From the IMG/VR virus record IMGVR_UViG_2671180747_000010, positions 1-12,505 of that record: DNA of 12,505 nucleotides; one strand, given 5' to 3'. The DNA comes from a virus (taxonomy: Duplodnaviria > Heunggongvirae > Uroviricota > Caudoviricetes). The translations under genes were made by a program, and so were the position numbers. Shown piece by piece: positions 1-12,505 of the stretch (its first letter is position 1; each line of letters begins with the position of its first letter). The notes beneath the pieces were generated by a model. That model saw nothing but the letters and a program-made list of their open reading frames with translations, was not told the DNA's origin and did no database searches.

Positions 1-6
1 TCGGGG

Positions 7-31
7 AAAAAAAACCCCGCCAGTGGCGGGG
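7..31 (-). terminator. Intrinsic terminator, tR'-like (minus strand)
   Basis: Perfect 7-bp GC-rich stem CCCCGCC(15-21)/GGCGGGG(25-31) with 3-nt loop; on the minus strand it is followed by an 8-nt T run (plus-strand A8 at 7-14). Confidence 0.55.
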
Positions 32-50
32 ATCTTTTGATAAAAACGAC

Positions 51-74
51 AAAGGCACCATTAAGGTGCCTTTT
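51..74. terminator. Hairpin with flanking T-runs on both strands (possible bidirectional terminator)
   Basis: Stem GGCACC(54-59)/GGTGCC(65-70), 5-nt loop, extended by AAA/TTT pairs; followed by TTTT on the plus strand and TTTGTCGTTTTT on the minus strand. Confidence 0.35.
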
Positions 75-204
75 ACACAGGGCAGCAGGCTTGTCATCAC
101 CTTATTGCTACTCCTGGCTTCCAGTTCGGAAGTCTCACAAGTCCCATCAGGGTACAGCGACAGTATCAGTCAACACTCTATGATTCTGCTGAACAGGCAG
201 TTTC

Positions 205-340
205 GCACTGTACATTATAACCTGTTAAGCCAACAAAAAACCCGCTCGGCGGCGGGGTTTGCTTACTTTGCCATCGCGAACAAAATCTGCAAAATATCAG
301 ATTTACACGGAATATATGCTCTTCAGTTCTATTTTGCAAG
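205..340 (-). promoter_or_regulatory. Candidate late promoter (pR'-like) region downstream of the Q-like gene
   Basis: Two minus-strand candidates: (a) -35 TTGCAA (334-339), 17-bp spacer, -10 TATATT (311-316), overlapping the Q stop; (b) a perfect -10 TATAAT (214-219) with a poor -35, placing a start ~195 nt upstream of the terminators at 7-74. Sequence-only call. Confidence 0.3.
235..257 (-). terminator. Intrinsic terminator-like hairpin after the Q-like gene (minus strand)
   Basis: Stem CCCGC(241-245)/GCGGG(252-256) with 6-nt loop; on the minus strand followed by TTTTTT (plus-strand A6 at 235-240). Confidence 0.4.
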
Positions 341-1012
341 ATATGGTTCTAAATTAATCGACTTTTGCCGTGAACGTACCCGCATTACTGAAATAAGAGC
401 ATCCCTGTCCAGCATCTCTGCACTACCCCGCATAGCCAACCAGTGAGGCCTGTGTGTTTTTGTCCATGTAGATTTAGCAACTCCTATGAACACCGCTAAC
501 TCCTGATGTTCATAGGTCTCACGCCCTGCCAGCTCACTCTTCACATCCTGTGCCGCCAGCCAAATCAGTTTCTTCAGACGATCCAGCGTTTTCCCTGCAA
601 TTTTTCTGGTACCAGCCTGAGCTTTAAACTCACCCCATACCCATTGTGTTATAGTGACCTGATCTTCCCAGCAAACATTTCCACTGTAGCACCACAGTAA
701 CCACGCCTTCTGATGTTCTTCCAGTTCCAGAACGGCACGCCGCCACGATGATGTTGCAAACTCAACCGGACTGACCAGCGCAATTGATGAGCCTTTCGCC
801 AGTGATTGTTTACCCGGGATCGGTTGATTATCCCGCGTGATCATTTTTCCGGTTACCTCATCGCGATAACGAATTTTTTTGCGTCTGTAACGCCCTGTAT
901 CGAACAGGGCATTCTCCTGCCAGGCTTCCAGCTGGCCTTTTGTCGCCCCACTGAGATCCGCAGTGGCAATCATGAGTTGCTCACGAACAAACTGTAAATA
1001 CTGGTTATTCAT
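329..1012 (-). CDS. Phage antitermination protein Q-like (227 aa from ATG at 1012; a GTG at 1018 is also in frame)
   Basis: Position immediately downstream of rusA, with the ATG overlapping the rusA stop (ATGA), and immediately upstream of promoter-like sequence plus terminators. Size is typical of the longer Q families. Assignment is mainly contextual. Confidence 0.5.
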   Translation of the reverse strand: MNNQYLQFVREQLMIATADLSGATKGQLEAWQENALFDTGRYRRKKIRYRDEVTGKMITRDNQPIPGKQSLAKGSSIALVSPVEFATSSWRRAVLELEEHQKAWLLWCYSGNVCWEDQVTITQWVWGEFKAQAGTRKIAGKTLDRLKKLIWLAAQDVKSELAGRETYEHQELAVFIGVAKSTWTKTHRPHWLAMRGSAEMLDRDALISVMRVRSRQKSINLEPYLAK

Positions 1013-1368
1013 GCGCACTCCAGTTCTGTGATTTTTATCCCCAGCCGCCCGCCAGGAACAGGCAGGCCACGCACAATATTGATTTCATCAAACTGCTCAT
1101 CGTCCATTAACAACCCCGCATGCGTAAGCGCATCCAGCGGCGCTTTCAGAATATTGTCCAGGTCACGGCGGCGCTTATCCGGTGGCTCTGCAATAATCCT
1201 GATTACCAGCCTTCCGGACAGGCTTAATTTCAGCCGCTGCTGGTTAACAATAAGCGCCACAGCACGGCGATAGCGCTTTCCCTCCTCCGAGATAAAATAT
1301 GTGCTGCCACGACGACGCCAGTAGGTGTTCACCGTTGGCGGGTAAGGTAAAACCAAATCTATGAGCAT
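1009..1368 (-). CDS. rusA: Crossover junction endodeoxyribonuclease RusA (Holliday junction resolvase), 119 aa
   Basis: Translation MLIDLVLPYPPTVNTYWRRRG...PPDKRRRDLDNILKAPLDALTHAGLL...GGRLGIKITEL aligns along its length with E. coli RusA as I recall it (LPWPPSNNRYY...PDRRRRDLDNLQKA...GGRLELTITE). Strong SD AAGAGGTG upstream. Confidence 0.9.
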   Translation of the reverse strand: MLIDLVLPYPPTVNTYWRRRGSTYFISEEGKRYRRAVALIVNQQRLKLSLSGRLVIRIIAEPPDKRRRDLDNILKAPLDALTHAGLLMDDEQFDEINIVRGLPVPGGRLGIKITELECA

Positions 1369-1380
1369 CAGTCACCTCTT

Positions 1381-2430
1381 TTACCCGAGCACGCCAGTCG
1401 CAAAGGCGTGATCAAGAAAATGAAAAATTAACTCAACCTGGGACCCGTACTTTTTCTCAAACTCCAGCGGGTCAGCATGAAGTTCGTTGTGGTGCTCCCG
1501 GCACAACGGTAGTGTGAAAATATCGTGGGATTTTGTCCCCATACCGCCCTGCCCATGGCCAATCAAGTGATGCGGATCATCAGCTGGCTTTCCACAGCAT
1601 GCACACGGCTGCGTCTTAACCCAGCGCGTGAACTTTTCATTAACCCAGCGACGACGTTTAGGCCGTTTCATGAAAGATTCCGGGGACTCCGGATCAACGG
1701 CGATGCTTACTACCGTCTTTTCCTGTGGCGTGGTTTGTGGCTGGTGGGCGTGAAGCGGTGGCGCTATGTTTTTTGTCCGCTGCTTCAGGATGCTGGTGGC
1801 GGTCTGCTCTCCCGGTATGATGTCGCTCTCACTGTATACGGAGCGAATTTTTTCCACCGGTAATCCCAGCGAACGACGCAATACAGATTCCGGAAGCGCA
1901 TCAGCCACCTGATTGCAGACCGCCCACCAGGATAATTCAGCCAGCGATAATTCACGCTCCTGTGCGCCATTCATTACGTGACGGATGACGTCAATCATCC
2001 AGGCGGCCAGATTCTGTTGAGCAAGTAGCTCCAGTGAATCAGATGTCTGCTCCCGCAGGTGGTTGTCGCAGTGCCAGCACAACACCATCGCGCCGGTACT
2101 GTAACGGTGAATGACGGTTTCGCTGTGATGATAATCGCCGTGTGGCCACTGGCAGGATTTCACGTGACGTAATAACCAGTCAGACAGTACACCAGCGCCA
2201 CCCGCAGCACGGATCACCCGCTCATCGCTGAAAAATGGCAGTAATGATTTATCTTCCGCCAGCGGCTGGCGAACGGCAGGTACAAACCCGGACGGCAGAG
2301 CACGCATGCTTTTCGGTTCCGGCTCCACCAGCACCCTGCCGCAATGAAAAACAGGCAGTGATTCGCGTCCGGGCTTAAGGACCACCAGGCCAAGTTCCGG
2401 CACCAGAACAGGTCGAAGTAATACCCGCAC
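1381..2430 (-). CDS. Phage protein, DUF968/YdfU-like, with C-terminal Cys/His-rich HNH-like motif (349 aa)
   Basis: C-terminus QPCACCGKPADDPHHLIGHGQGGMGTKSHDIFTLPLCREHHNELH is a CxCC...HH...C..HH zinc-finger/HNH-like signature. Size and position upstream of rusA resemble YdfU-type nin-region proteins. GTG start preceded by GGAGG. Confidence 0.7.
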   Translation of the reverse strand: MRVLLRPVLVPELGLVVLKPGRESLPVFHCGRVLVEPEPKSMRALPSGFVPAVRQPLAEDKSLLPFFSDERVIRAAGGAGVLSDWLLRHVKSCQWPHGDYHHSETVIHRYSTGAMVLCWHCDNHLREQTSDSLELLAQQNLAAWMIDVIRHVMNGAQERELSLAELSWWAVCNQVADALPESVLRRSLGLPVEKIRSVYSESDIIPGEQTATSILKQRTKNIAPPLHAHQPQTTPQEKTVVSIAVDPESPESFMKRPKRRRWVNEKFTRWVKTQPCACCGKPADDPHHLIGHGQGGMGTKSHDIFTLPLCREHHNELHADPLEFEKKYGSQVELIFHFLDHAFATGVLG

Positions 2431-2431
2431 G

Positions 2432-2704
2432 TTACCTCCAGATACGTTGCTGGAATGTGCGGGACGGACGCGGTGGACGTTCGGAATAAGGGAGCCTGAC
2501 AGAGATTATCCAGTGACGATAATTGAGGCTGAGGGCTTTCTTAACCTCGTATCCGCGCCTGCGGTAACACTGAATCAGCCATTCGGCCTGTTCTTCAGTG
2601 CATGGAGGATGCTGGTACCAGTGGGTTTTAAATACGTGCGAATGCCGCCCCCGCTTAATGGCCGGGACGGCTTCAGAATTGTGGGATTTTATATGTTGCG
2701 CCAT
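2432..2704 (-). CDS. Hypothetical phage nin-region protein (90 aa from ATG at 2704; longer GTG start at 2722 possible)
   Basis: ORF ends 1 nt before the DUF968 gene start (operon-like). The ATG at 2704 has a GGAG SD 6 nt upstream. No family recognised. Confidence 0.45.
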   Translation of the reverse strand: MAQHIKSHNSEAVPAIKRGRHSHVFKTHWYQHPPCTEEQAEWLIQCYRRRGYEVKKALSLNYRHWIISVRLPYSERPPRPSRTFQQRIWR

Positions 2705-2722
2705 CGGGTTCTCCGGTGACAC

Positions 2723-2876
2723 AGCAGGTGCCAGTTGTTCAGGCTGGCTGGATGATTTTAACCAGAATGCGATAAAAAGTGTATAAGACCATCACATATT
2801 GCATTCATGCAAAATGATTGTTACATAATATTACTTAATAAGTATAGGTTTTACCGTTTTATCATTAGAAGATTGT
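2723..2876 (+). promoter_or_regulatory. AT-rich divergent intergenic region, probable promoter of the PAPS-reductase/ParB-like operon
   Basis: ~150 bp strongly AT-rich between divergently oriented genes. Contains TTGCAT (2799-2804) then a 17-bp spacer and TACATAATA. The exact promoter is not resolvable by eye. Confidence 0.3.
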
Positions 2877-4103
2877 ATGTCAGGAACCATAACAAAAATC
2901 AGCACAGGGGAAAATGTTCTGTCAGCAGCAATCCATCGCATTGAATGGTTGTTCGAAACGTTTAATGAGGTCTGCTTGTCTTTTTCTGGTGGCAAAGACT
3001 CTACTGTGCTTTTCCATCTTGTGGCAGAAGTCGCCAGTAGAAAAAAACGTCGTTTTTCGGTTTTATTCATTGACTGGGAAGCCCAATATCAGTGCACGAT
3101 TAATCATATCCAAAAGATGAGGGAAATGTACCGGCATGTGACAGACAATTTTTACTGGGTAGCGCTTCCTCTGACTACGGTAAATGGCGTCTCTCAGTTT
3201 CAGCCAGAATGGATATGTTGGGAGCCAGGTGTAGAATGGGTTCGTCAGCCACCAGATGACGCTATTACAGATATGTCGTATTTCCCATTTTATCGGTATG
3301 CCATGACGTTTGAAGAATTTGTTCCGGCATTTTCTTCCTGGTTTGCCGGTAACCGATGTGGAGTGGGAATACTAACTGGTGTTCGTGCTGATGAATCGCT
3401 CAATCGCTTTATGGGACTGGTGTCTCAGCGCAAACTGAGATATGCAGATGATAAACCCTGGACCACCGCTTCACCCGATGGTTTTTACTACACCATGTAT
3501 CCATTGTATGACTGGAAAACAAATGATATATGGACGTATAACTCAAGAACCCGCGCCATCTACAATCCCCTGTACGACCTAATGTACCGTGCCGGAGTGT
3601 CGTTACGCAACATGCGTGTTTGTGAGCCCTTTGGCCCGGAACAGCGTAAGGGGCTGTGGCTTTACCATGTTCTGGAGCCGGAAACCTGGGCCAGGATGTG
3701 TGAGCGAGTGTCAGGGGCTGCCAGTGGCGCTCTTTATGCCAATGAAAGCGGTGCCTATTTTGCTCTGCGTAAACGAATCACAAAACCGGCTCATCATACC
3801 TGGCGCAGCTACGCAATGTTCATGCTGGATGTTATGCCAGAAAGAACAGCAGAACATTACCGTAACAAAATTGCAGTCTACCTGCGCTGGTATCAGACGC
3901 GGGGCTTCCCGGATGATATCCCGGATGAACAGGAGAATGACCTGGGGAGCCGGGATATCCCGTCCTGGCGACGTATCTGTAAGACGCTCATAAAGAATGA
4001 CTTCTGGTGCCGGACCCTCTCCTTCAGTCCGAACAAACCCCGGCACTATGAGCGTTATCTGCAACGAATGAAGGAAAGGAGGAAAGAATGGGGGATTCTG
4101 TGA
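2877..4103 (+). CDS. PAPS-reductase-family PP-loop protein (IbrA/YbdN-like; DndC/SspD superfamily), 408 aa
   Basis: N-terminal SFSGGKDS PP-loop ATP-pyrophosphatase motif; length ~406 aa matches YbdN/IbrA. Followed by an overlapping ParB-like gene, as in ybdNM/ibrAB. Confidence 0.85.
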   Translation: MSGTITKISTGENVLSAAIHRIEWLFETFNEVCLSFSGGKDSTVLFHLVAEVASRKKRRFSVLFIDWEAQYQCTINHIQKMREMYRHVTDNFYWVALPLTTVNGVSQFQPEWICWEPGVEWVRQPPDDAITDMSYFPFYRYAMTFEEFVPAFSSWFAGNRCGVGILTGVRADESLNRFMGLVSQRKLRYADDKPWTTASPDGFYYTMYPLYDWKTNDIWTYNSRTRAIYNPLYDLMYRAGVSLRNMRVCEPFGPEQRKGLWLYHVLEPETWARMCERVSGAASGALYANESGAYFALRKRITKPAHHTWRSYAMFMLDVMPERTAEHYRNKIAVYLRWYQTRGFPDDIPDEQENDLGSRDIPSWRRICKTLIKNDFWCRTLSFSPNKPRHYERYLQRMKERRKEWGIL

Positions 4104-4732
4104 CGCCTGAGATGGATGTACTAAGCAACATGATTCGTCAGTACTTCAGTCGGGAACAGCCCGAAGAAGAGTCCATACGAGCCCTTAACCATCTGCGCAG
4201 GGTACTGCATGAAGTCAGTCCTTTTGCACAGGAGCCTGTAGACTGTGTGCTGTGGGTGAAAGCGGATGAGGTGGTAGCCAACGATTATAACCCCAATGTC
4301 ATGGCACCAAGTGAGAAGAAACTGCTGAAGCAGTCACTGGAAAAAGATGGTTTCACACAACCGGTGGTGGTGTCAGAGGAGAAGAATCATTATCTGGTGG
4401 TGGATGGTTTTCATCGTCAGTTATTGGGCAGAGAATCAGTTACAGGAAAACGTCTGAGGGGCTGGCTGCCTGTAGCCTGTATTAATCCAGAGAGAAAAGG
4501 GCAAGCCGCACGCATTGCCGCAACCATTCGACATAACCGGGCTAGGGGGAAACACCAGATAGACTCAGTGTCTGATATTGTAAGAGATCTTTCACGCTTG
4601 GGATGGGCAGATGAACGCATTGGCACTGAGTTGGGTATGGATCAGGATGAAGTACTGAGACTTAAACAAATTAGCGGGCTAACTGAGTTATTTCAGGAAG
4701 TGGATTTCAGCCCGGCATGGACAGTTAAATAG
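4088..4732 (+). CDS. ParB/sulfiredoxin-fold (DGxHR-like) protein, IbrB/YbdM-like, 214 aa
   Basis: VVDGFHRQ motif and an arginine-rich segment (ARIAATIRHNRARG) typical of ParB N-terminal-domain/DndB-like proteins. Start overlaps the upstream gene by 16 nt with an AGGAGG SD (translational coupling). Confidence 0.8.
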   Translation: MGDSVTPEMDVLSNMIRQYFSREQPEEESIRALNHLRRVLHEVSPFAQEPVDCVLWVKADEVVANDYNPNVMAPSEKKLLKQSLEKDGFTQPVVVSEEKNHYLVVDGFHRQLLGRESVTGKRLRGWLPVACINPERKGQAARIAATIRHNRARGKHQIDSVSDIVRDLSRLGWADERIGTELGMDQDEVLRLKQISGLTELFQEVDFSPAWTVK

Positions 4733-4785
4733 CAAGCTCGACTTACTCCCGGCAAGGCAACAAAATGATAACTAATACAACTCAA

Positions 4786-4808
4786 GGGCGATTAATATCG
4801 CCCCTTTT
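4786..4808. terminator. Hairpin between convergent genes (possible bidirectional terminator)
   Basis: GGGCGAT(4786-4792) TAAT ATCGCCC(4797-4803) followed by CTTTT on the plus strand. The T tract is weak. Confidence 0.35.
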
Positions 4809-4897
4809 ACTGCTCAATTTTCGACCGATACATCTACTTGACTCTCGTTTTACTCCCCCTTTTTACCCGATATGGAAATTCCCATATCGTAATGAAT

Positions 4898-5002
4898 TCA
4901 GCTCCCCAGACGATCCATCAAAAGCACGACCAGGCAGTAAACACCCACAACAACAATAACGGCCAGAGCGCCTTCCATTGCCAGTGAGATATCATCCGAC
5001 AT
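4898..5002 (-). CDS. Small hydrophobic peptide (34 aa), predicted single transmembrane helix
   Basis: ATG preceded by AAGGAGG SD. Translation MSDDISLAMEGALAVIVVVGVYCLVVLLMDRLGS. Not in the supplied ORF track (below its size cut-off). Confidence 0.45.
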   Translation of the reverse strand: MSDDISLAMEGALAVIVVVGVYCLVVLLMDRLGS

Positions 5003-5037
5003 ATTCCCTCCTTTGGTGTGAATCCCGGCGAACGTTT

Positions 5038-5121
5038 TTACCCCCACCGACAAATAACATATATTAAAAAAGCGATAACCATAGCAACGCCTGTAATTGC
5101 AAATGCTTCAGGCCAGTTCAT
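5038..5121 (-). CDS. Small hydrophobic peptide (27 aa), predicted single transmembrane helix
   Basis: ATG overlaps the stop of the upstream DUF551 gene (ATGA) and is preceded by AGGAGGTG SD. Translation MNWPEAFAITGVAMVIAFLIYVICRWG. Confidence 0.45.
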   Translation of the reverse strand: MNWPEAFAITGVAMVIAFLIYVICRWG

Positions 5122-5630
5122 TGGCGCACCTCCTGCGGCGGTTCTGGTAGCGGCATCCAGCCGGTTACATTGCGGCTCTGTGTTTCGAAAAATTCATCAC
5201 CATTACGGACTACATCAAAAAACTCACCGTCTCGATATTGCGCATAAAGAACGAATGCGCCATCACATAAAATAATTACGTGCTGACCATCATCCGGCAT
5301 TCGCTCACTACAGCTTATCCAACCATCCGGAGTTACCGGATAGTTGGTTGACGTTTCCGAGATTTCCCGAAAATTATTGGTTGACGACCCCTTATTTTCC
5401 CGAAAGTTTCCAGCCTGAAGCATGGCGGCGCGGTGACACCAGATAATCCAGCCAAGCGCCATATCCCATGCCATGTATTCTCTATCGCCATTTTTTGCTC
5501 TGCGGCGATCTACAGATTCTCCGAAACGCTTCTCCATAAATAATTCATAGGCTGCTCGTTCATCCGATACTGCTGCCAGTGATGCCAGCGCAATCCGTGC
5601 CAGCTCTTCCGCTTCTTCTGCTGGAAGCAC
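5118..5630 (-). CDS. DUF551-type phage protein (170 aa from GTG); likely N-terminally disrupted (see finding)
   Basis: C-terminal DGWISCSERMPDDGQ...GWMPLPEPP resembles the DUF551 signature (W-x-S-x-x-D-x-LP ... GWMPLP). An in-frame upstream ATG at 5705 with SD is cut off by TGA at 5682-5684. Confidence 0.6.
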   Translation of the reverse strand: MLPAEEAEELARIALASLAAVSDERAAYELFMEKRFGESVDRRRAKNGDREYMAWDMALGWIIWCHRAAMLQAGNFRENKGSSTNNFREISETSTNYPVTPDGWISCSERMPDDGQHVIILCDGAFVLYAQYRDGEFFDVVRNGDEFFETQSRNVTGWMPLPEPPQEVRQ

Positions 5631-5977
5631 AACGTTGCTACCCGGTCCGTATGTTTCGCGCCAATGCTGGATTGTCAGCAGTCAATCTTTGGTAATAGTG
5701 GTCATGCCGCGTTTCCTTCTTTCTTATTGTAACCAGGTGAATCATTTGATACCAACGAGGGTTTTAGTGAAAGGAGGTGAAATCACCTGTAAGATACTGA
5801 AATAAAACAGGTGATGTCTGGATGAGCGCTTAAAGTCTATTTGATATCGATTGTGCAATAATTAATCGTTTATTCTAAAATCGGCAAAACTTTTGATACT
5901 GCGATCTCAACTTTTTAAAGCGTTTAAAACTTCATTAAATCTATATGGCAACTAACATACGGGCCAGCCTCGCCAAA

Positions 5978-6508
5978 CTAACCCGCTTTAGATTCTACCG
6001 GATTTGATTGCCTACTTGTCTCGGTTTTTTCCAAAATCTCTCTGACGCAATCGTCTGGCATATCTACAATCATCAACGCAGCCAGGCGCTTCCTGCCTTC
6101 TAGTTGTAATAAATCTTGGTTTTCTTTATTCAGCAGTGTCAGAACCGTCTCTACACCTTTGCGAGCAAGGAGATTGGTTAACTGTTCTCGTTCGTCTTTC
6201 GTAAGGAATGAAAGCATCTGTGTAAGCTGATCTCCCTTATCACCAGAACAACCAAAATTACCATAAATACCAATATCGTTTGGTAATTCACCCTTGCCCT
6301 CTTTAAGCCACTCAAGACTAACGCCTTCACTTTCAGAAATTCGTATAAGGATACTTTCTCTGGGGGCTGGTTGTGTTTGTCCTCCCTTGAAATAGCTGTT
6401 TAATGTGTTGATATTGATTCCCCACGCTCTGGCAGCTGCACTTCTTGAAGGGTAGCGCTTTGTAAGCATTCCAATACGTTCAATAACAGGTTCTTTTCCC
6501 TGCGACAT
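5978..6508 (-). CDS. Mu-like prophage repressor (c-like), HTH DNA-binding protein, 176 aa from ATG at 6508
   Basis: Leftward gene divergent from ner/A/B, as for Mu c. ATG at 6508 has an AAGAGG SD; the track's longer 6583 start lacks one. Putative HTH segment RSAAARAWGININTLNSYFKG; C-terminal part loosely resembles Mu c. Confidence 0.7.
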   Translation of the reverse strand: MSQGKEPVIERIGMLTKRYPSRSAAARAWGININTLNSYFKGGQTQPAPRESILIRISESEGVSLEWLKEGKGELPNDIGIYGNFGCSGDKGDQLTQMLSFLTKDEREQLTNLLARKGVETVLTLLNKENQDLLQLEGRKRLAALMIVDMPDDCVREILEKTETSRQSNPVESKAG

Positions 6509-6590
6509 AAAGATACCTCTTGGTGCTTTTCTAAGGAAAGGTTTCTTTCTATTTATCCAATTGAAAAATAAGGATAAAAGCAAAAATTAG

Positions 6591-6639
6591 CCAAAATACC
6601 AAAAATACCTTGATTTGGTATTTTTGGTGATGCATTATT
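6591..6639. promoter_or_regulatory. Operator-like palindrome overlapping a candidate early promoter (Pe-like) for ner-A-B
   Basis: Perfect 12-bp inverted repeat ACCAAAAATACC (6598-6609) / GGTATTTTTGGT (6617-6628) with a tandem CCAAAATACC copy at 6591-6600. Overlaps -35 TTGATT (6610-6615), 18-bp spacer, TG-extended -10 ATTATT (6634-6639). Confidence 0.45.
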
Positions 6640-6650
6640 TACCCGTACAG

Positions 6651-6670
6651 ATATCCGCACGAATATCCGC
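6651..6670. promoter_or_regulatory. Direct repeat ATATCCGC x2 at 12-bp spacing upstream of ner (possible Ner/IHF-type site)
   Basis: ATATCCGC at 6651-6658 and 6663-6670, between the candidate Pe and the ner SD. Confidence 0.25.
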
Positions 6671-6698
6671 GCGGGTAACTTTTTAGAATAGAGGAAGT

Positions 6699-6947
6699 AT
6701 GAGTAGAAGAGAAGTTTCAGATCACGATTGGCCGCCTGAAATCATCAAGGCGCGCTTACACATGGCTGGCTTATCACTGCGCTCTTTATCTTTAAAGGCT
6801 GGTTACAGCAGGGATTCGCTGAAAAGCGTATTACGTACTCCTTGCCGACCGTATCAGCAAATAATTGCTGATGCTCTTGGGGTATCACCTGAAGAAATCT
6901 GGCCCAGTCGATACCAGGTTAAGAGCTATATGAGAAAGGCGTCATGA
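6699..6947 (+). CDS. ner: Ner-like DNA-binding transcriptional regulator (Mu Ner / Nlp family), 82 aa
   Basis: DWPPEIIKARLHMAGLSLRSLS...IIADALGVSPEEIWPSRYQ matches Mu Ner / E. coli Nlp (DWHPADIIAGLRK...IWPSRY). SD GAGGAAG upstream; located between repressor and transposase. Confidence 0.88.
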   Translation: MSRREVSDHDWPPEIIKARLHMAGLSLRSLSLKAGYSRDSLKSVLRTPCRPYQQIIADALGVSPEEIWPSRYQVKSYMRKAS

Positions 6948-6948
6948 T

Positions 6949-9039
6949 ATGTATGTCATTGCAAAAGAACTGATTGGCGCGCCCGGAATGCCTGCTACAA
7001 CAAAAGGTATTCGCCAGGCATTACAACGTTACGTACAAGGGAAAAGCTGTTGTTCCCGTCGTCGCTCAGGCTCTAAAGCAACTGAATACAGCATCGACTG
7101 TTTACCTGAAGTGACGCAGCAGGCATTACGTGAACGCTACGCCCTGCAACTGATGACGCAAAAAGCCGATGAATCACCGGCTCCGGTGGTGACAAAGGCC
7201 AGACGCTCACCTGCCGTGGTTGATGCGGTGGAGGCATATCGCGGATCACCCCAACTGATGGTCGAACGCCTCAATGCCCTGACTGAAAACCAACGTAAAG
7301 TGGCAGAGGCACGAATAGCGATCGTCAGCGAGGTGCTGAAAATCGCGCAACAACCCGGCTTTAGTTGCGCTAAGGCTATCCGGTTCCTCGTTAACAGCCT
7401 GGCACGATCACAACTGGACGAGCGCATTGTGGCAATGGTTGAGACGGCGAACGCCAAAAAGGGAAACAGCCGCGCGTTGAGTGAAATCACGCTGAAACGC
7501 TGGATTGCGGCCTTTAACAAGGCACAGAACGCCGCTGAACGCCTGCTTTTACTGGCACCGGGTAAACGCCAGGAAATAAAAGCCGAAGATATTAACTGGC
7601 TGCCCGAATTTCTGGCGCAGTATCGCCAGTCAAACGGCCGACCAATGACCGAGGCTTACGAGGATTTTGTTGCTGAATGGCAGCACCGGCACGCTGATGA
7701 GCCTTATATGCTCGATATCATGCCCTCTTATGACACCATTCGCCGCGCAATGAAGAAACTGCCGGAAGTGGTGAAACAAAAAGGCCGGGTAACTGGCAGT
7801 GAATACCGTCAGCTTGAGGGATTCACGCGCCGCGACTGGTCCAGAATGCCGGTGAATTATGTCTGGATTGGTGACGGTCACGGCATGAAGCTGAAATGCG
7901 CGCACCCGGTTCACGGGCGGCCATTCGCACCGGAAGTGACCTTTGTTATCGACGGTGGCACGCGCTTTGTGGTGGGCTGGAGCCTTGACCTGGCTGAAAA
8001 TGTTTTCGCCGTAGCCGGTGCCATACAGCACGGTATTCGCCATCATGGCAAACCGTTTCTGTATTACTCGGATAATGGCTCCGGGGAAACCGCCGACGTC
8101 CTGGATAAGGAGATTGTGGGGATACTGCCACGACTGGGGATTAATCACCCGACAGGGATTGCCGGTAATCCGCAGGGACGGGGCATTATCGAACGGCTTA
8201 ACCGCACATTACCGATGCGCATAGCCCGTAAATACCGCACCTATTTCGGGAAAGGAGCAGATCGCGAGACGTTACGTAAAACCAACCGCGATTTACGCTC
8301 GGCATTCAGTGCCCTGCAACAGGGCAAACGGCTGAACGCCCGGCAGCAGTCAGCGATGCGTGATTTACCGTCCTGGTCTGAACTGATTGATGCCATTCGT
8401 GACGGTGTTGAGTGGTACAACAACCGGCCGCACGATGAATTACCCATGAAGCCGAACGGTAAACATTACAGCCCGGCGGAGTTCAGAAAAAAACGCCTGG
8501 CGGAAGAGGACACGGAAATTGAATGGCTGTCCGATGTGGAATTGCGGGACATGTTCCGGCCGATGGTGGAACGCCCTGTAAGACGCTGTGAAATACGCTG
8601 GCTGAATAATATTTACTACGCGCCCGAGCTGCGTGATGAACATGGCCGCAAAGTGCTTATCAGCTATGACATTCATGATGCCGAACGAATTACCGTGCGT
8701 CGCCTGGATGGCAGCGTGATTTGCGAGGCGGTATGGGACGGCAATAAACGCGAAGCCTTCCCGGTCAGCGCGGAATACTACAAACAGCAGCAGCGTCTTA
8801 AAGGCATGCGTAAACGCGCAGAGGAAAAAATTCGTGATGCCGAGGATGAGGTTATCAACGTGCTGGAGCACAAGCCGCAGGAGCCATGGCTGGAAAACAT
8901 ATACCGCCCTATGGGTAATACGGTGGCCGTTCAGCAGCCAGCGATTGATGATGAACCTGACGAAGAATACGAGCGTAATTTCCAGCGGGGATTACAGCTG
9001 CTTGAAGCGAAATTAAAAGAAAATGACCCGCTGGCCTGA
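6949..9039 (+). CDS. Mu-type DDE transposase (MuA-like), 696 aa
   Basis: Starts 2 nt after the ner stop. Candidate DDE-region motifs VWIGDGHG and YYSDNGSG. C-terminus YRPMGNTVAVQQP...DEEYERNFQRGLQLLE resembles the MuA C-terminus (FRPSGNTERV...DDEYETERDEYLNHSLDILE, from memory). Confidence 0.92.
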   Translation: MYVIAKELIGAPGMPATTKGIRQALQRYVQGKSCCSRRRSGSKATEYSIDCLPEVTQQALRERYALQLMTQKADESPAPVVTKARRSPAVVDAVEAYRGSPQLMVERLNALTENQRKVAEARIAIVSEVLKIAQQPGFSCAKAIRFLVNSLARSQLDERIVAMVETANAKKGNSRALSEITLKRWIAAFNKAQNAAERLLLLAPGKRQEIKAEDINWLPEFLAQYRQSNGRPMTEAYEDFVAEWQHRHADEPYMLDIMPSYDTIRRAMKKLPEVVKQKGRVTGSEYRQLEGFTRRDWSRMPVNYVWIGDGHGMKLKCAHPVHGRPFAPEVTFVIDGGTRFVVGWSLDLAENVFAVAGAIQHGIRHHGKPFLYYSDNGSGETADVLDKEIVGILPRLGINHPTGIAGNPQGRGIIERLNRTLPMRIARKYRTYFGKGADRETLRKTNRDLRSAFSALQQGKRLNARQQSAMRDLPSWSELIDAIRDGVEWYNNRPHDELPMKPNGKHYSPAEFRKKRLAEEDTEIEWLSDVELRDMFRPMVERPVRRCEIRWLNNIYYAPELRDEHGRKVLISYDIHDAERITVRRLDGSVICEAVWDGNKREAFPVSAEYYKQQQRLKGMRKRAEEKIRDAEDEVINVLEHKPQEPWLENIYRPMGNTVAVQQPAIDDEPDEEYERNFQRGLQLLEAKLKENDPLA

Positions 9040-9120
9040 AATAAAAAAATAACCCGAGGGGTAACTCAGGTTATTTGGGTTTCAGTCTCGGAGAATGCTG
9101 TCTCAAGCGAGGTAAATAAT

Positions 9121-10053
9121 ATGACTGATATTAACGATGTAATCAAGACCATAGATGAACTTATTGATGGCGGCGTACTGACGCAGTATGCCATCGCCAG
9201 GGAGGCGGGAATTTCCGACGGCACATTATCGGCTTTCCGCAAAGGGAAATATAAAGGAGACAATGATGCTATAACGGCGGCCATGCTTTCCTGGTATGAA
9301 AACTGGAATAAACAAAGCGCACTGTCCGAGCTGCCACAGTTTGTGGAAACGCAGACAGTCCAGGAGCTGCGCGCACTGTTTCAGGCGGTTCGCCTGATGG
9401 GCTGTATTAACGTCATAGTGGGCGTGCCGGGTGTGGGTAAAACGGCCACCGCCCGTAATTACTGCCAGGAGCAACCGAACACCTGGATGATCACCCTGTC
9501 ACCCGCGCACTCCAGCGTCACGGAGTGTCTGCTGGAGCTGGCAGAGGAACTGGGGATTGATTACACCCGCGCGAACAAAGGGGCATTATCCCGCGCCATC
9601 CGCCGTCGCCTGATGGGAAAGCGCGGACTGGTGATTGTTGATGAGGCTGATCATCTTGGTATTGACGGTCTGGAGCAACTCCGGGCAATCCAGGACGCCA
9701 CAGGGGTCGGGATGGTGCTTATTGGTAACCCAAAGGGGCTGTTTAAAGGCGGACGCCGCGCCGTTGATGATTTATCTCGCCTGTTCAGCCGTCTTGCCCG
9801 TACAAAACAACTACGCAAGGCCAAAAAAGCGGATGTGCTGGCTATTGCCAGGGCATGGGGGATTAGTGGTGAGGCCGAGCTGGCTGTCATGCAGGCTATC
9901 GCTGAAAAACCGGGGGCATTACGCGTTCTGACGCATACGCTTAACCAGGCGTGGATCACCGCCAGCGGTGAAGGTGCGGCACTGACAGAAAAACATATTA
10001 ATGCGGCCTTTAAAGAGGTTTATGCCAACCCTGAATTACTCTCACAGGTGTGA
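9121..10053 (+). CDS. Mu B-like transposition ATPase / target DNA activator, 310 aa
   Basis: Walker A GVPGVGKT. Extensive similarity to Mu B as recalled (GTLSAFRKGKYKGDN vs GTISSFINDKYNGDN; LPQFVETQTV; GLVIVDEADHLG; KKADVLAIA; KPGALRVL). SD GAGGT upstream. Confidence 0.92.
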   Translation: MTDINDVIKTIDELIDGGVLTQYAIAREAGISDGTLSAFRKGKYKGDNDAITAAMLSWYENWNKQSALSELPQFVETQTVQELRALFQAVRLMGCINVIVGVPGVGKTATARNYCQEQPNTWMITLSPAHSSVTECLLELAEELGIDYTRANKGALSRAIRRRLMGKRGLVIVDEADHLGIDGLEQLRAIQDATGVGMVLIGNPKGLFKGGRRAVDDLSRLFSRLARTKQLRKAKKADVLAIARAWGISGEAELAVMQAIAEKPGALRVLTHTLNQAWITASGEGAALTEKHINAAFKEVYANPELLSQV

Positions 10054-10055
10054 TT

Positions 10056-10277
10056 ATGATTGCATTTAATATTCCTGATATTTACGGACGCTTTCACCTG
10101 GTGAATTTCGATAACGTCAAAGCAGTCTCCGTGTCTGACAGTGAAGAATGTGGCGATTTACTTTTTGAATTTAATGATCGCACCAGAATGGCAATATCGG
10201 CAGGACTTGATCGTGAAGGTGCGAAAGAAGCTTACAGCAATATTTGTCGTTTTATCGGTGCAAAACGAATCAGCTAA
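10056..10277 (+). CDS. Small protein in the Mu kil position (73 aa from ATG at 10056)
   Basis: Immediately follows the B stop (GTG at 10050 overlaps it; ATG at 10056 has an AGGTG SD). Size and position match Mu kil, but no sequence-level recognition. Confidence 0.5.
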   Translation: MIAFNIPDIYGRFHLVNFDNVKAVSVSDSEECGDLLFEFNDRTRMAISAGLDREGAKEAYSNICRFIGAKRIS

Positions 10278-10289
10278 ACGAGGTGTTAT

Positions 10290-10922
10290 ATGAATACGCA
10301 GATACAGCAGGAAATCAATGTTCTCCACAGCTTTCGAGAGTTTAACGACAATGGCTGTGAGGTTCGTGATTATATCTATGAATTGATGATCGGTGATGGT
10401 GTGTGTTTTCTGTATATAGACCTGTATCAGTGGTATGCAGACATGCAACTTGATTCCATCAGACGCCGTTTTAATCATGAATGCTTTGATGTGGATGTAT
10501 GGGAAAGCCTGCGCTTTGGTTTTCTGATTATGGATGATTATCGCCAGGGGTGGCGACACGGTTACTCCATTCTTCGTGCAATCATGCGTGGCGAAACCCG
10601 AAAAATTCCGGGGATGGGTAAAGTTAATCGAGGCTTCCTGTCAGAGCTGGCTGCATTGCGCATGAATCCATTACTGATACAACCGGAGTTCCCTATGAAT
10701 TTGTTTGATTCACTGAATAACGCCCGCCGCCTGACTGAACTTGCTGGTGCGGTACTGGAGCGCAGCAAACGCTACCCGCAACGTTTTGCACTGAAAACCA
10801 CGCCGCCGGTAAACGAAGTTAAGGGAACCGGTGAAATTGAAATCACCGTTAAGACCAACGGCCTGCGCCGCCGTGTGAAGGCCACCCGTATAAGCGGATG
10901 CACGGTTTACTGGGAAGTATGA
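10290..10922 (+). CDS. Hypothetical protein of the Mu-like early (semi-essential) region, 210 aa
   Basis: Long ORF co-oriented with the early operon with a GAGGTG SD. No recognisable motifs. Confidence 0.55.
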   Translation: MNTQIQQEINVLHSFREFNDNGCEVRDYIYELMIGDGVCFLYIDLYQWYADMQLDSIRRRFNHECFDVDVWESLRFGFLIMDDYRQGWRHGYSILRAIMRGETRKIPGMGKVNRGFLSELAALRMNPLLIQPEFPMNLFDSLNNARRLTELAGAVLERSKRYPQRFALKTTPPVNEVKGTGEIEITVKTNGLRRRVKATRISGCTVYWEV

Positions 10923-10996
10923 AGTTGCTTCATGGTTCGGCTCTGTCATCAGGTCAGACGCCGGGTCAGTTATCCGAACAAAACGAGGACCAGAGG

Positions 10997-11194
10997 ATGA
11001 GTAAAGTCGTACGCATTATTTTCGAATACAAGGAGCACGTTATCCATAAAAACGCGGATGGAACAGTGCGCATGGGGGTAAGTCTGGACATACGTTCAAC
11101 CGGGATAAAGCAGAAAGGTGATGGACCTGCCATGATTTTTGGGGGGGGGTTATGCTCGCGGAAAGCAGAGACTTTGCTGAACTTGTGGCAATGA
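10997..11194 (+). CDS. Hypothetical early-region protein, probably truncated by a frameshift at the G9 tract (intact reading would be 10997..11271, ~104 aa)
   Basis: ATG at 10997 with SD AGGACCAGAGG. A 9-G homopolymer at 11141-11149 separates it from an open frame that runs to a stop at 11269-11271, 5 nt before gam. Confidence 0.4.
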   Translation: MSKVVRIIFEYKEHVIHKNADGTVRMGVSLDIRSTGIKQKGDGPAMIFGGGLCSRKAETLLNLWQ

Positions 11195-11275
11195 AAGCCA
11201 GTGCGCTCATGAAAGATATGGACATGAGTTCCGGGGTTATTAAAGGTAATGAATTTAATCAGCAGGGGTAATTCC

Positions 11276-11827
11276 ATGAGCAAAGTACGNNNNNNNNNNN
11301 NNNNACGCGTTACAAAATTAAAGGCCGCAGCCGAGGCGGCACCGCAGACCCGTGAAGAGGTCAGCCGCGATATCCGACGCTTTGGGGATATGCAGCGTGA
11401 GGCACTACGCCTGGAAACGGCGATGAATGACGAAGTGGCAGAAATCACCGCCCGTTATACGCCGCAGATTGAAAACCTTAAAAAAGAAATCAAAGTGCTT
11501 TTTAAGGGGATTCATGACTGGTGTAAAACCAACCGCAATGAGCTGACGAACGGCGGTGAAACCAAAACTGCCAATCTGACCACCGGAACGGTGTCATGGC
11601 GGCTGGGAAATCCATCATGCAGCGTCAGTCGTGATGTGGAAGGTGTGATTGAAATGCTGCGTCGTATGGGGCTTGAGCGCTTCATCCGCACGAAAGAGGA
11701 AGTGAATAAGCAAGCTGTCCTGGCAGAGCCGGATGCGGTGAAAGGGATTGCGGGTATTAAGGTGAATAAAGGCGCTGAAAATTTTCATGTCGAGCCTTTT
11801 GAACAGGACGCCGGACTGAATAAATAA
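11276..11827 (+). CDS. gam: Host-nuclease inhibitor Gam (Mu Gam family), ~183 aa, containing a 15-N gap
   Basis: DIRRFGDMQREALRLETAMNDEVAEIT...NELTNGGETKTANLTTGTVSWR...LERFIRTKEEVNK...EPFEQDAG matches Mu Gam as recalled (DIKRIGDLQREASRLETEMNDAIAEIT...DELTNGGKVKTANLVTGDVSWR...LQRFIRTKQEINK...IPFEQEAG). Confidence 0.88.
   Translation: MSKVXXXXXXRVTKLKAAAEAAPQTREEVSRDIRRFGDMQREALRLETAMNDEVAEITARYTPQIENLKKEIKVLFKGIHDWCKTNRNELTNGGETKTANLTTGTVSWRLGNPSCSVSRDVEGVIEMLRRMGLERFIRTKEEVNKQAVLAEPDAVKGIAGIKVNKGAENFHVEPFEQDAGLNK
11290..11304. other. Run of 15 ambiguous bases (N) - assembly/scaffold gap or masked bases inside gam
   Basis: Directly visible in the sequence; true length of the missing segment is unknown. 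Confidence 1.
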
Positions 11828-11911
11828 CACCGCATTAAATCTTTAAATATCACATCGTTTTAATTATGGCGCTCGCGTCAGGGGACTGCTCGCGCCTGAA
11901 TGAGGCATGTC

Positions 11912-12490
11912 ATGAGTATTAAATATCGTTATTTTAAAATGAATGAGAGCGATTCCCGTCATTATCACAGGGAATGGCTTGATTGTGTTGGCAGGGAGCG
12001 CCAGAAATTGATTGATGATTTTCTCAGTAATCAGAATGCCAGAGGGTATTGTTATTCCTGGTATTGTGGGGATTTTTTTGTCAAATCAATACTGGTGCAT
12101 GAGGATGTTGATGTCGGAAGAAATAAACGGGTGTTGTCTGATAAATTTGATGAAGATGGCCGTACTTTATTTTCAGTTAAGCCCGACCGCAGATTCAGAG
12201 AGGGAAAAAAACTGAACAAAGCACTGAATATCTTAAACGAGAAGTTAAAACAGCTTCCGTCATTCAGTACCTGGATGGTTAATAAACTGGACTGCTATTT
12301 TGAGGTTTTTGGTGTCAGCAACGGCCGCACAGTTATGGCGTGCTCTTCTGCCGGGTTCTATGGCGACAAAGGGGCTGTTGTGGTTCGTATTCCTGTCGGT
12401 GAATCAGATAATGCCTTTTCACCTGAAAAGCTGCATCCGTCATTGATGGCAATCAAGCATTCCGAATTCATCGCAATAACGGAGGAATAA
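11912..12490 (+). CDS. Hypothetical protein, AT-rich accessory gene downstream of gam (192 aa from ATG at 11912)
   Basis: ATG at 11912 with GAGG SD 6 nt upstream (the track's start at 11900 lacks one). No recognisable motifs; the gene looks AT-rich by eye relative to the neighbouring A/B/gam genes. Confidence 0.55.
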   Translation: MSIKYRYFKMNESDSRHYHREWLDCVGRERQKLIDDFLSNQNARGYCYSWYCGDFFVKSILVHEDVDVGRNKRVLSDKFDEDGRTLFSVKPDRRFREGKKLNKALNILNEKLKQLPSFSTWMVNKLDCYFEVFGVSNGRTVMACSSAGFYGDKGAVVVRIPVGESDNAFSPEKLHPSLMAIKHSEFIAITEE

Positions 12491-12493
12491 TTC

Positions 12494-12505
12494 ATGATTG
12501 ATGCA
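12494..12505 (+). CDS. 5' end of a further early-region gene (partial, runs off the window)
   Basis: ATG at 12494 preceded by GGAGG SD (12481-12485). Only 4 codons visible. Confidence 0.3.

Follow-up and report, generated by a model that had tools for sequence, protein, structure and literature searches.

A contig on which lambdoid phage genes abut the left arm of a Mu-like phage raises the question of whether the two gene sets belong together, and if not, how and exactly where they were joined. The window considered here, i.e. the whole stretch of 12,505 nucleotides that was analysed, coincides over its full length with contig LNZK01000024.1 (12,505 bp; draft assembly GCA_001607415.1), and it ends inside Mu-like DNA. 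A first-pass annotation of the sequence had proposed that a lambdoid prophage here meets a Mu-like transposable prophage; this is borne out, and the join is found between positions 5727 and 5728, with lambdoid DNA to the left and Mu-like DNA to the right. The explanation advanced below, in which we have high confidence, is that an Sp18-type Mu-like phage integrated by transposition into a resident ompW-type lambdoid prophage.

The lambdoid half, 1-5727, is 99.8-99.9% identical to eleven E. coli loci, matches at this level being found in nine complete genomes and several drafts, and belongs to a type of lambdoid prophage integrated at ompW (PPompW). It shares its nin-region gene order with the PPompW prophages of STEC but differs from them in being broken at 5727/5728 by the Mu-like element. 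Assignment of DUF551, RusA and Q to a lambdoid phage on the minus strand, made earlier from the sequence, is confirmed by Pfam and by the annotation of relatives: Q is preceded by RusA and other nin-region genes in the order of lambda, and the full layout can be seen in the relative L001. The features of this half are as follows.

329-1012, minus strand: antiterminator Q of the late genes (Pfam Phage_antiter_Q, E 1.2e-88; annotated as Q in relatives)
1009-1368, minus strand: RusA Holliday-junction resolvase of the nin region (PF05866; annotated as RusA in L001)
1381-2430, minus strand: DUF968 (YdfU-like) nin-region gene (PF06147)
2877-4732, plus strand: IbrA-like and IbrB-like gene pair within the nin region (Pfam PAPS_reduct and DUF3440, weak ParB_N; L001 annotation)
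5118-5705, minus strand: DUF551 gene (Pfam DUF551, E 2.8e-20)
5702-5727, minus strand: 26 nt (2 nt plus 7 codons plus the stop) forming the severed 3' end of a nin-region ORF of 171 aa, which is intact in the relative L008 at 11616-12131

The 171-aa ORF matches no Pfam family, and its TGA overlaps the DUF551 ATG (ATGA). The DUF551 gene itself carries an in-frame TGA at codon 8 after the ATG at 5705 (window 5682-5705, minus strand), and gene callers move its start to 5681 or 5630 (CTG or GTG). Since the codon 8 stop is also present in relatives whose prophage is uninterrupted, it predates the insertion and was not caused by it. The IbrA-like protein is weakly similar to the defence proteins BrxP (E 4.5e-08) and DndC (E 6e-05) in PADLOC, and the IbrA/IbrB-like pair may serve as an accessory or defence module carried by the prophage.

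To the right of the join the gene order repressor (minus strand), ner, A, B, kil, gam is that of the annotated Mu record, and the earlier reading of this side as a phage Mu left arm is upheld by PHROG and Pfam matches together with comparison to that record (AF083977). The features of this half are as follows.

5728-12505, plus strand: Sp18-type Mu-like left arm of 6.8 kb, assigned by identity to known copies; the contig ends within it
5978-6508, minus strand: immunity repressor, placed like c in Mu (PHROG 3037 'transcriptional repressor', E 6.7e-61)
6598-6609 and 6617-6628, repressor-ner intergenic region: perfect 12-nt inverted repeat ACCAAAAATACC/GGTATTTTTGGT, found by repeat search
6699-6947, plus strand: Ner-like regulator (Pfam HTH_35, E 2.5e-19; PHROG 769)
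6949-9039, plus strand: Mu-type DDE transposase A, 696 aa (PHROG 310 'transposase', E 1.7e-211; Pfam Mu-transpos_C and HTH_Tnp_Mu_1)
9121-10053, plus strand: MuB-like AAA+ target-DNA activator B (Pfam Phage-MuB_C, E 4.4e-25)
10662-10922, plus strand: Kil-like protein (PHROG 2679, E 2.4e-40; PF26843)
11249-11827, plus strand: Gam-like host-nuclease inhibitor, given as the longest ORF, with gene callers starting it at ~11305 (Pfam Phage_Mu_Gam, E 8.1e-39; PHROG 491)

The likeness to Mu is thus one of order: c (minus strand), ner, A, B, kil and, further on, gam. Identity to the Mu proteins is 22.6% for A, 46.7% for B and 43% for Ner, and similarity of the repressor to Mu c is not detectable by protein comparison. 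Two domains of transposase A score above their cut-offs (PF09299, 63.8 bits against 21.7; PF02316, 28.5 bits against 23.3), with the rve core falling below its own. The inverted repeat at 6598-6628 is likely an operator, because it is placed between divergent regulatory genes as in Mu. Repeats of the ACCAAAAATACC type are also seen at 6576-6631 and at 6238-6273, i.e. as related copies within the repressor gene, and these are probably operators as well; a second inverted repeat, 6639-6678, lies immediately upstream of ner. In the B-gam module (10290-11194) a 210-aa ORF fuses a part similar to Mu E7 to a Kil-like part, where the O157 Sp18-like copies have four short genes, and this difference reflects mosaic variation in the early region.

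The position of the boundary follows from searching 5000-7000 of the window against 5,426 complete E. coli genomes. Part of this query is matched by 2,501 of the 5,426, the matches split at the junction, and none among the complete genomes spans it. Among the best matches listed, those to the right part begin at query 718-729, which corresponds to window 5717-5728, and they lie beside unrelated genes, among them rhsD, citrate lyase, ypdB, a sulfatase gene, dcuC, garP and appC. In flanks extracted from nine loci, TGTAACCAGG is directly abutted by nine different sequences, in contexts that include rhsD, ypdB, the sulfatase gene, garP-garL, appC, a Stx1a phage and a plasmid-like context. These nine flanks differ right up to the base preceding TGTAACCAGGTGAATC, and the left terminus of a mobile element is therefore base 5728, with the sequence TGTAACCAGGTGAATCATTTGATACC... 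starting 5'-TG at 5728-5729. A fixed terminus joined to unrelated sites at these and many other E. coli loci is the behaviour of a Mu-like element, and the terminus falls within the interval of 5706-5977 in which attL had been expected. The repressor gene ends 250 bp from this terminus, compared to 338 bp in Mu, where the repressor gene likewise lies near the left end.

The Mu-like half is well known elsewhere: at unrelated loci it is found entire, 38.8 kb long, with ends and target duplications of its own. Over 5726-7000 the window matches a Mu-like prophage of E. coli JMF1 at 100% identity and the copies in other genomes at 98.8-99.8%, and 5728-12505 is 94% identical to the 'inserted Bacteriophage Mu-like phage' annotated in the Stx phage LC727895. 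With Sp18 of O157:H7 Sakai and the Sp18-like STEC prophages it shares 94-100% identity, the left terminus, gene order and end motifs; it differs from them in its insertion site, and from the O157 copies in the B-gam module, which in the window has the 210-aa ORF with Mu E7 and Kil similarity. Sp18 of O157 Sakai has been described as Mu-like and apparently intact (PMC2669165), its site differs from strain to strain (PMC7430833), and in clonal complex 119 STEC 6 of 10 Sp18-like phages lie within mobile elements, Stx phages included (PMC10132054). A varying insertion site, with lambdoid and Stx prophages among the documented targets, is thus common to the group; insertions of Sp18-like phages into prophages are already published, and the junction is of a well-known kind, now placed to the base. 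The site itself is new relative to the known Sp18-type copies, the junction occurring in no complete E. coli genome searched, and the exact left junction is also absent from the species-representative genomes and the viral contigs that were searched, so that a single assembly attests it.

Among more distant relatives, the Yersinia phage vB_YpM_5 has a transposase region with 81% DNA identity over an aligned 1.5 kb. In its circular record (L023) the right and left phage ends are linked at 4573-4760 by ~100 bp that are unrelated to them and probably stem from host DNA taken up in packaging, so that the 'circular' topology is an artefact of assembly, of a kind typical for the virion DNA of Mu-type phages. 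In E. coli JMF1 (L003) and DLI.5a (L004), which give the closest matches to the left end, the Mu-like elements have undergone extensive deletion and are remnants 16.5 and 10.5 kb long; one of the two has an IS903B insertion, and both keep two ends and 4-bp duplications.

The site as it was before insertion is preserved in the lambdoid relatives. Comparison with relatives lacking the insertion had been suggested as a check, and in all eleven loci examined the sequence is uninterrupted, with prophage genes on both sides: it reads ...TTTCTTAT up to the insertion point and continues directly with TAACAATTACACC, so that the DNA to the right of the point begins TAACAATTAC. The insertion point precedes the 3' end of the 171-aa ORF by 26 nt and the DUF551 ATG by 22 nt. 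Where the window passes into Mu-like DNA, the empty-site loci carry ~11 kb more of lambdoid DNA, up to int and ompW, in the order 171-aa ORF, ead/Ea22, DUF4752, DUF4406, replication genes, a cro/cI-like region, dicB, exonuclease, xis, int and ompW. Loci with the IbrB-like protein, collected by exact protein look-up, comprise empty sites plus one unrelated Mu-like insertion. In L012 (GCA_051553915.1, 1-7300) a different Mu-like phage, with a 695-aa transposase and a 76-aa Ner and in the other orientation, interrupts DUF968 in a lambdoid prophage of this same ompW type, and prophages of this type have therefore been struck by transposable phages more than once.

The form of the right end comes from six independent insertions of this phage type in which both ends are available (L003, L004, L019, L020, L021 and L022). 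Each of the six runs from TGTAACC to ...CGCCGCGCTATA and has a 4-bp direct repeat on its two sides. Mu has a right terminus of CA and makes a 5-bp target duplication, and the first-pass annotation suggested looking for TG and CA ends with a 5-bp repeat; the left TG is present in the window, and the right end in 6/6 relatives is ...GCTATA-3', i.e. TA in place of CA, with 4 bp duplicated. Assigning a 5-bp duplication with a right end of ...CGCTAT was considered and rejected, because the fifth base mismatches in 4/6 insertions. Placement of the right end at ...TATA is supported by the finding that the first TTTGATACC then lies at +18 from both termini in the relatives. GenBank record LC727895 also annotates a 4-bp duplication, for the Mu-like phage inserted in the Stx1a lambdoid phage. 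A literature search for 4-bp duplications in Mu-like phages found nothing relevant; the 4-bp stagger stands as an unremarked GenBank annotation, absent from the papers searched, and its mechanism may be undescribed. The Sp18-type transposase (~23% identical to MuA) could, with about equal chances for and against, assemble a transpososome of a geometry unlike that of Mu, which would employ a 4-bp rather than 5-bp stagger, a TA-3' rather than CA-3' right terminus, and end sites of the TTTGATAYY type.

For the insertion in the window these relatives and the empty site together predict the following feature.

5724-5727, no strand assigned: predicted left copy of the 4-bp target duplication, TTAT

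The right junction is accordingly predicted to read ...CGCTATA-TTAT-TAACAATTAC: a simple nested insertion should show the right end AAAAAAATCGCCGCGCTATA, then TTATTAACAATTACACCGTC, then the remainder of the 171-aa ORF and ead/Ea22. A search of viral contigs for a right junction did not find it, the pattern used having assumed a 5-bp duplication where this phage type shows 4 bp. Since the right junction lies outside the window, the TTAT duplication, the nesting and the completeness of the Mu-like element are predictions.

How far other arrangements could account for the same contig depends largely on what each half does elsewhere. Phage genomes are mosaic and both gene sets stand on one contig, so that a single phage carrying lambdoid and Mu-like modules inside common ends could be imagined, and this had been named at the outset as a finding that would overturn the two-prophage reading. 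When the halves were compared with their relatives, each was found without the other at 99-100% identity; with the halves existing separately and the Mu-like half complete at 38.8 kb, a mosaic phage is excluded for practical purposes, and we assign it a negligible probability. Joining of lambdoid to Mu-like DNA by misassembly of a short-read draft might be suspected from a small contig with both ends in prophage DNA, and is very improbable because the join matches, to the base, a terminus used elsewhere. It falls exactly at the end found in nine other insertions and not at a sequence common to both phages, assemblers break at repeats rather than fuse unrelated unique sequences at the last base of a transposon, and the index lists the contig for two samples.

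Somewhat more weight, while still unlikely, is given to an arrangement in which the Mu-like element is not nested but adjoins a truncated lambdoid remnant, a deletion, inversion or second transposition having removed or relocated the half with replication, immunity and int. The right junction lies outside the window, replicative transposition of the Mu type yields adjacent deletions and inversions, and the deleted 10.5- and 16.5-kb Mu-like remnants among the relatives indicate that such loci decay. Against this, the eleven closest lambdoid relatives all keep the full prophage past the site, and the left junction is precisely what a primary insertion would leave. Integration of the Sp18-type phage into the ompW-type prophage is therefore preferred; because the contig ends inside Mu-like DNA, it is from the relatives that we infer nesting in this genome, where lambdoid DNA would resume beyond the Mu-like right end.

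With the terminus fixed, the left attachment end (attL) of the Mu-like element is the 250 bp between base 5728 and the repressor gene, and it contains three inward-pointing TTTGATAYY sites. This motif occurs three times in the 12.5-kb window, compared to 0.54 expected, and all three copies are on the plus strand within 156 bp, at 5745, 5840 and 5892, i.e. at +18, +113 and +165 from the left terminus. The features of attL are as follows.

5728-5756, plus strand: left terminus, starting 5'-TG, with putative transposase site L1 (core TTTGATACC, 5745-5753), which aligns with Mu L1
5731-5818, no strand assigned: AGGTGA/CAGGTGA repeats, within and beside site L1 and over the spacer between L1 and L2, particular to the left end
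5840-5848, plus strand: putative transposase site L2, core TTTGATATC (TTTGATACC in other copies)
5892-5900, plus strand: putative transposase site L3, core TTTGATACT, also found in the repeat search

At the right terminus of four full-length relatives TTTGATAYY is found at +18, +40 and +75, again pointing inward, and in L1 and R2, read inward on the top strand, it is preceded by (A/T)TCA. When aligned, the first of the sites (...AATCATTTGATAC) coincides with Mu L1 (GATTCACTTGAAGTAC) and with its counterpart in Yersinia phage vB_YpM_5. Conservation among the E. coli copies is uninformative for the end sites since these are 94-100% alike. In Mu one of the end sites L1-L3 stands alone at the terminus with the other two as a pair further off, and R1-R3 are closely spaced, a layout said to have been worked out by Craigie, Mizuuchi and Mizuuchi in 1984. 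The phage type considered here resembles Mu in its 5'-TG start, in the alignment of L1, and in having three sites at each end, all inward, widely spaced on the left and closely on the right (the latter from the relatives' right ends); it differs in the site core, TTTGATAYY as opposed to the Mu consensus, as well as in the ...TATA right end and 4-bp duplication of the relatives. By analogy with L1-L3 of Mu, the three TTTGATAYY sites most likely bind the phage's Mu-type transposase, and they are named here as putative sites on that basis.

Two other readings of the motifs near the left end were tried. The first-pass annotation had drawn attention to AGGTGA at 5735, 5775 and 5809 (plus strand), TCACCT at 5783-5788, GTGAAT at 5737 and GTGAAA at 5767 and 5777, all of which are found where it placed them, and had likened the GTGAA(A/T) repeats to the TTTCAC half of Mu-type transposase sites. 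Counting both strands, AGGTGA occurs 12 times in the window compared to 4.5 +/- 2.2 in shuffled sequences, and four of the 12 lie within 80 bp (5735-5814), a cluster that is therefore non-random; it consists in part of a 12-nt inverted repeat, 5779-5790 and 5807-5818, and in part of direct repeats of A(A/C)CAGGTGA. Neither kind of repeat holds up as a transposase site. The AGGTGA and GTGAA(A/T) repeats are both missing from the right end, where no AGGTGA copy lies in the terminal 1 kb, and from the Yersinia phage vB_YpM_5; alignment does not find the AGGTGA repeats conserved in Mu either, and a TTTCAC-like half-site formed by the GTGAA(A/T) words would be on the opposite strand from that in Mu. 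The repeats were rejected as transposase sites for these reasons, and TTTGATAYY, the motif common to both ends, is taken as the likely site. A role of TTTGATA as an IHF site was also considered, since its reverse complement TATCAA resembles the IHF core. The IHF consensus includes a flanking TTR part, which is not conserved among the six sites, and TTTGATA holds its +18 register at both termini; the IHF reading was rejected by eye.

The event may be pictured as follows. An Sp18-type phage would have transposed into the nin region of the resident lambdoid prophage with 5728 as its left terminus, its transposase presumably acting on L1 (+18), L2 (+113) and L3 (+165) in attL. A Mu-like genome of ~39 kb, if full length, would thereby have been placed between the lambdoid replication and immunity genes and the DUF551...RusA-Q segment, and Q would be uncoupled from early rightward transcription. 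The first-pass annotation had supposed that the insertion split the pR operon and probably inactivated the prophage. The former part agrees with the empty-site comparison, in which replication and immunity genes are parted from DUF551...Q by the insertion point; inactivation by the insertion is uncertain, for in an uninterrupted relative a replication gene and another early gene of the lambdoid prophage already have internal stops and the codon 8 stop of DUF551 is common to empty and filled sites, and the prophage may have been defective already.

For annotation, the left terminus of the Mu-like element is now fixed to the base, and likely transposase sites, still putative, can be named for a common STEC phage type. 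Recognition that this 12.5-kb contig joins two prophages should also aid the scaffolding of the draft genome. The locus adds another case of transposable phages entering resident prophages, a principle already documented, and such an insertion can part the late-gene activator Q from the early promoter, fixing the lambdoid prophage in place.
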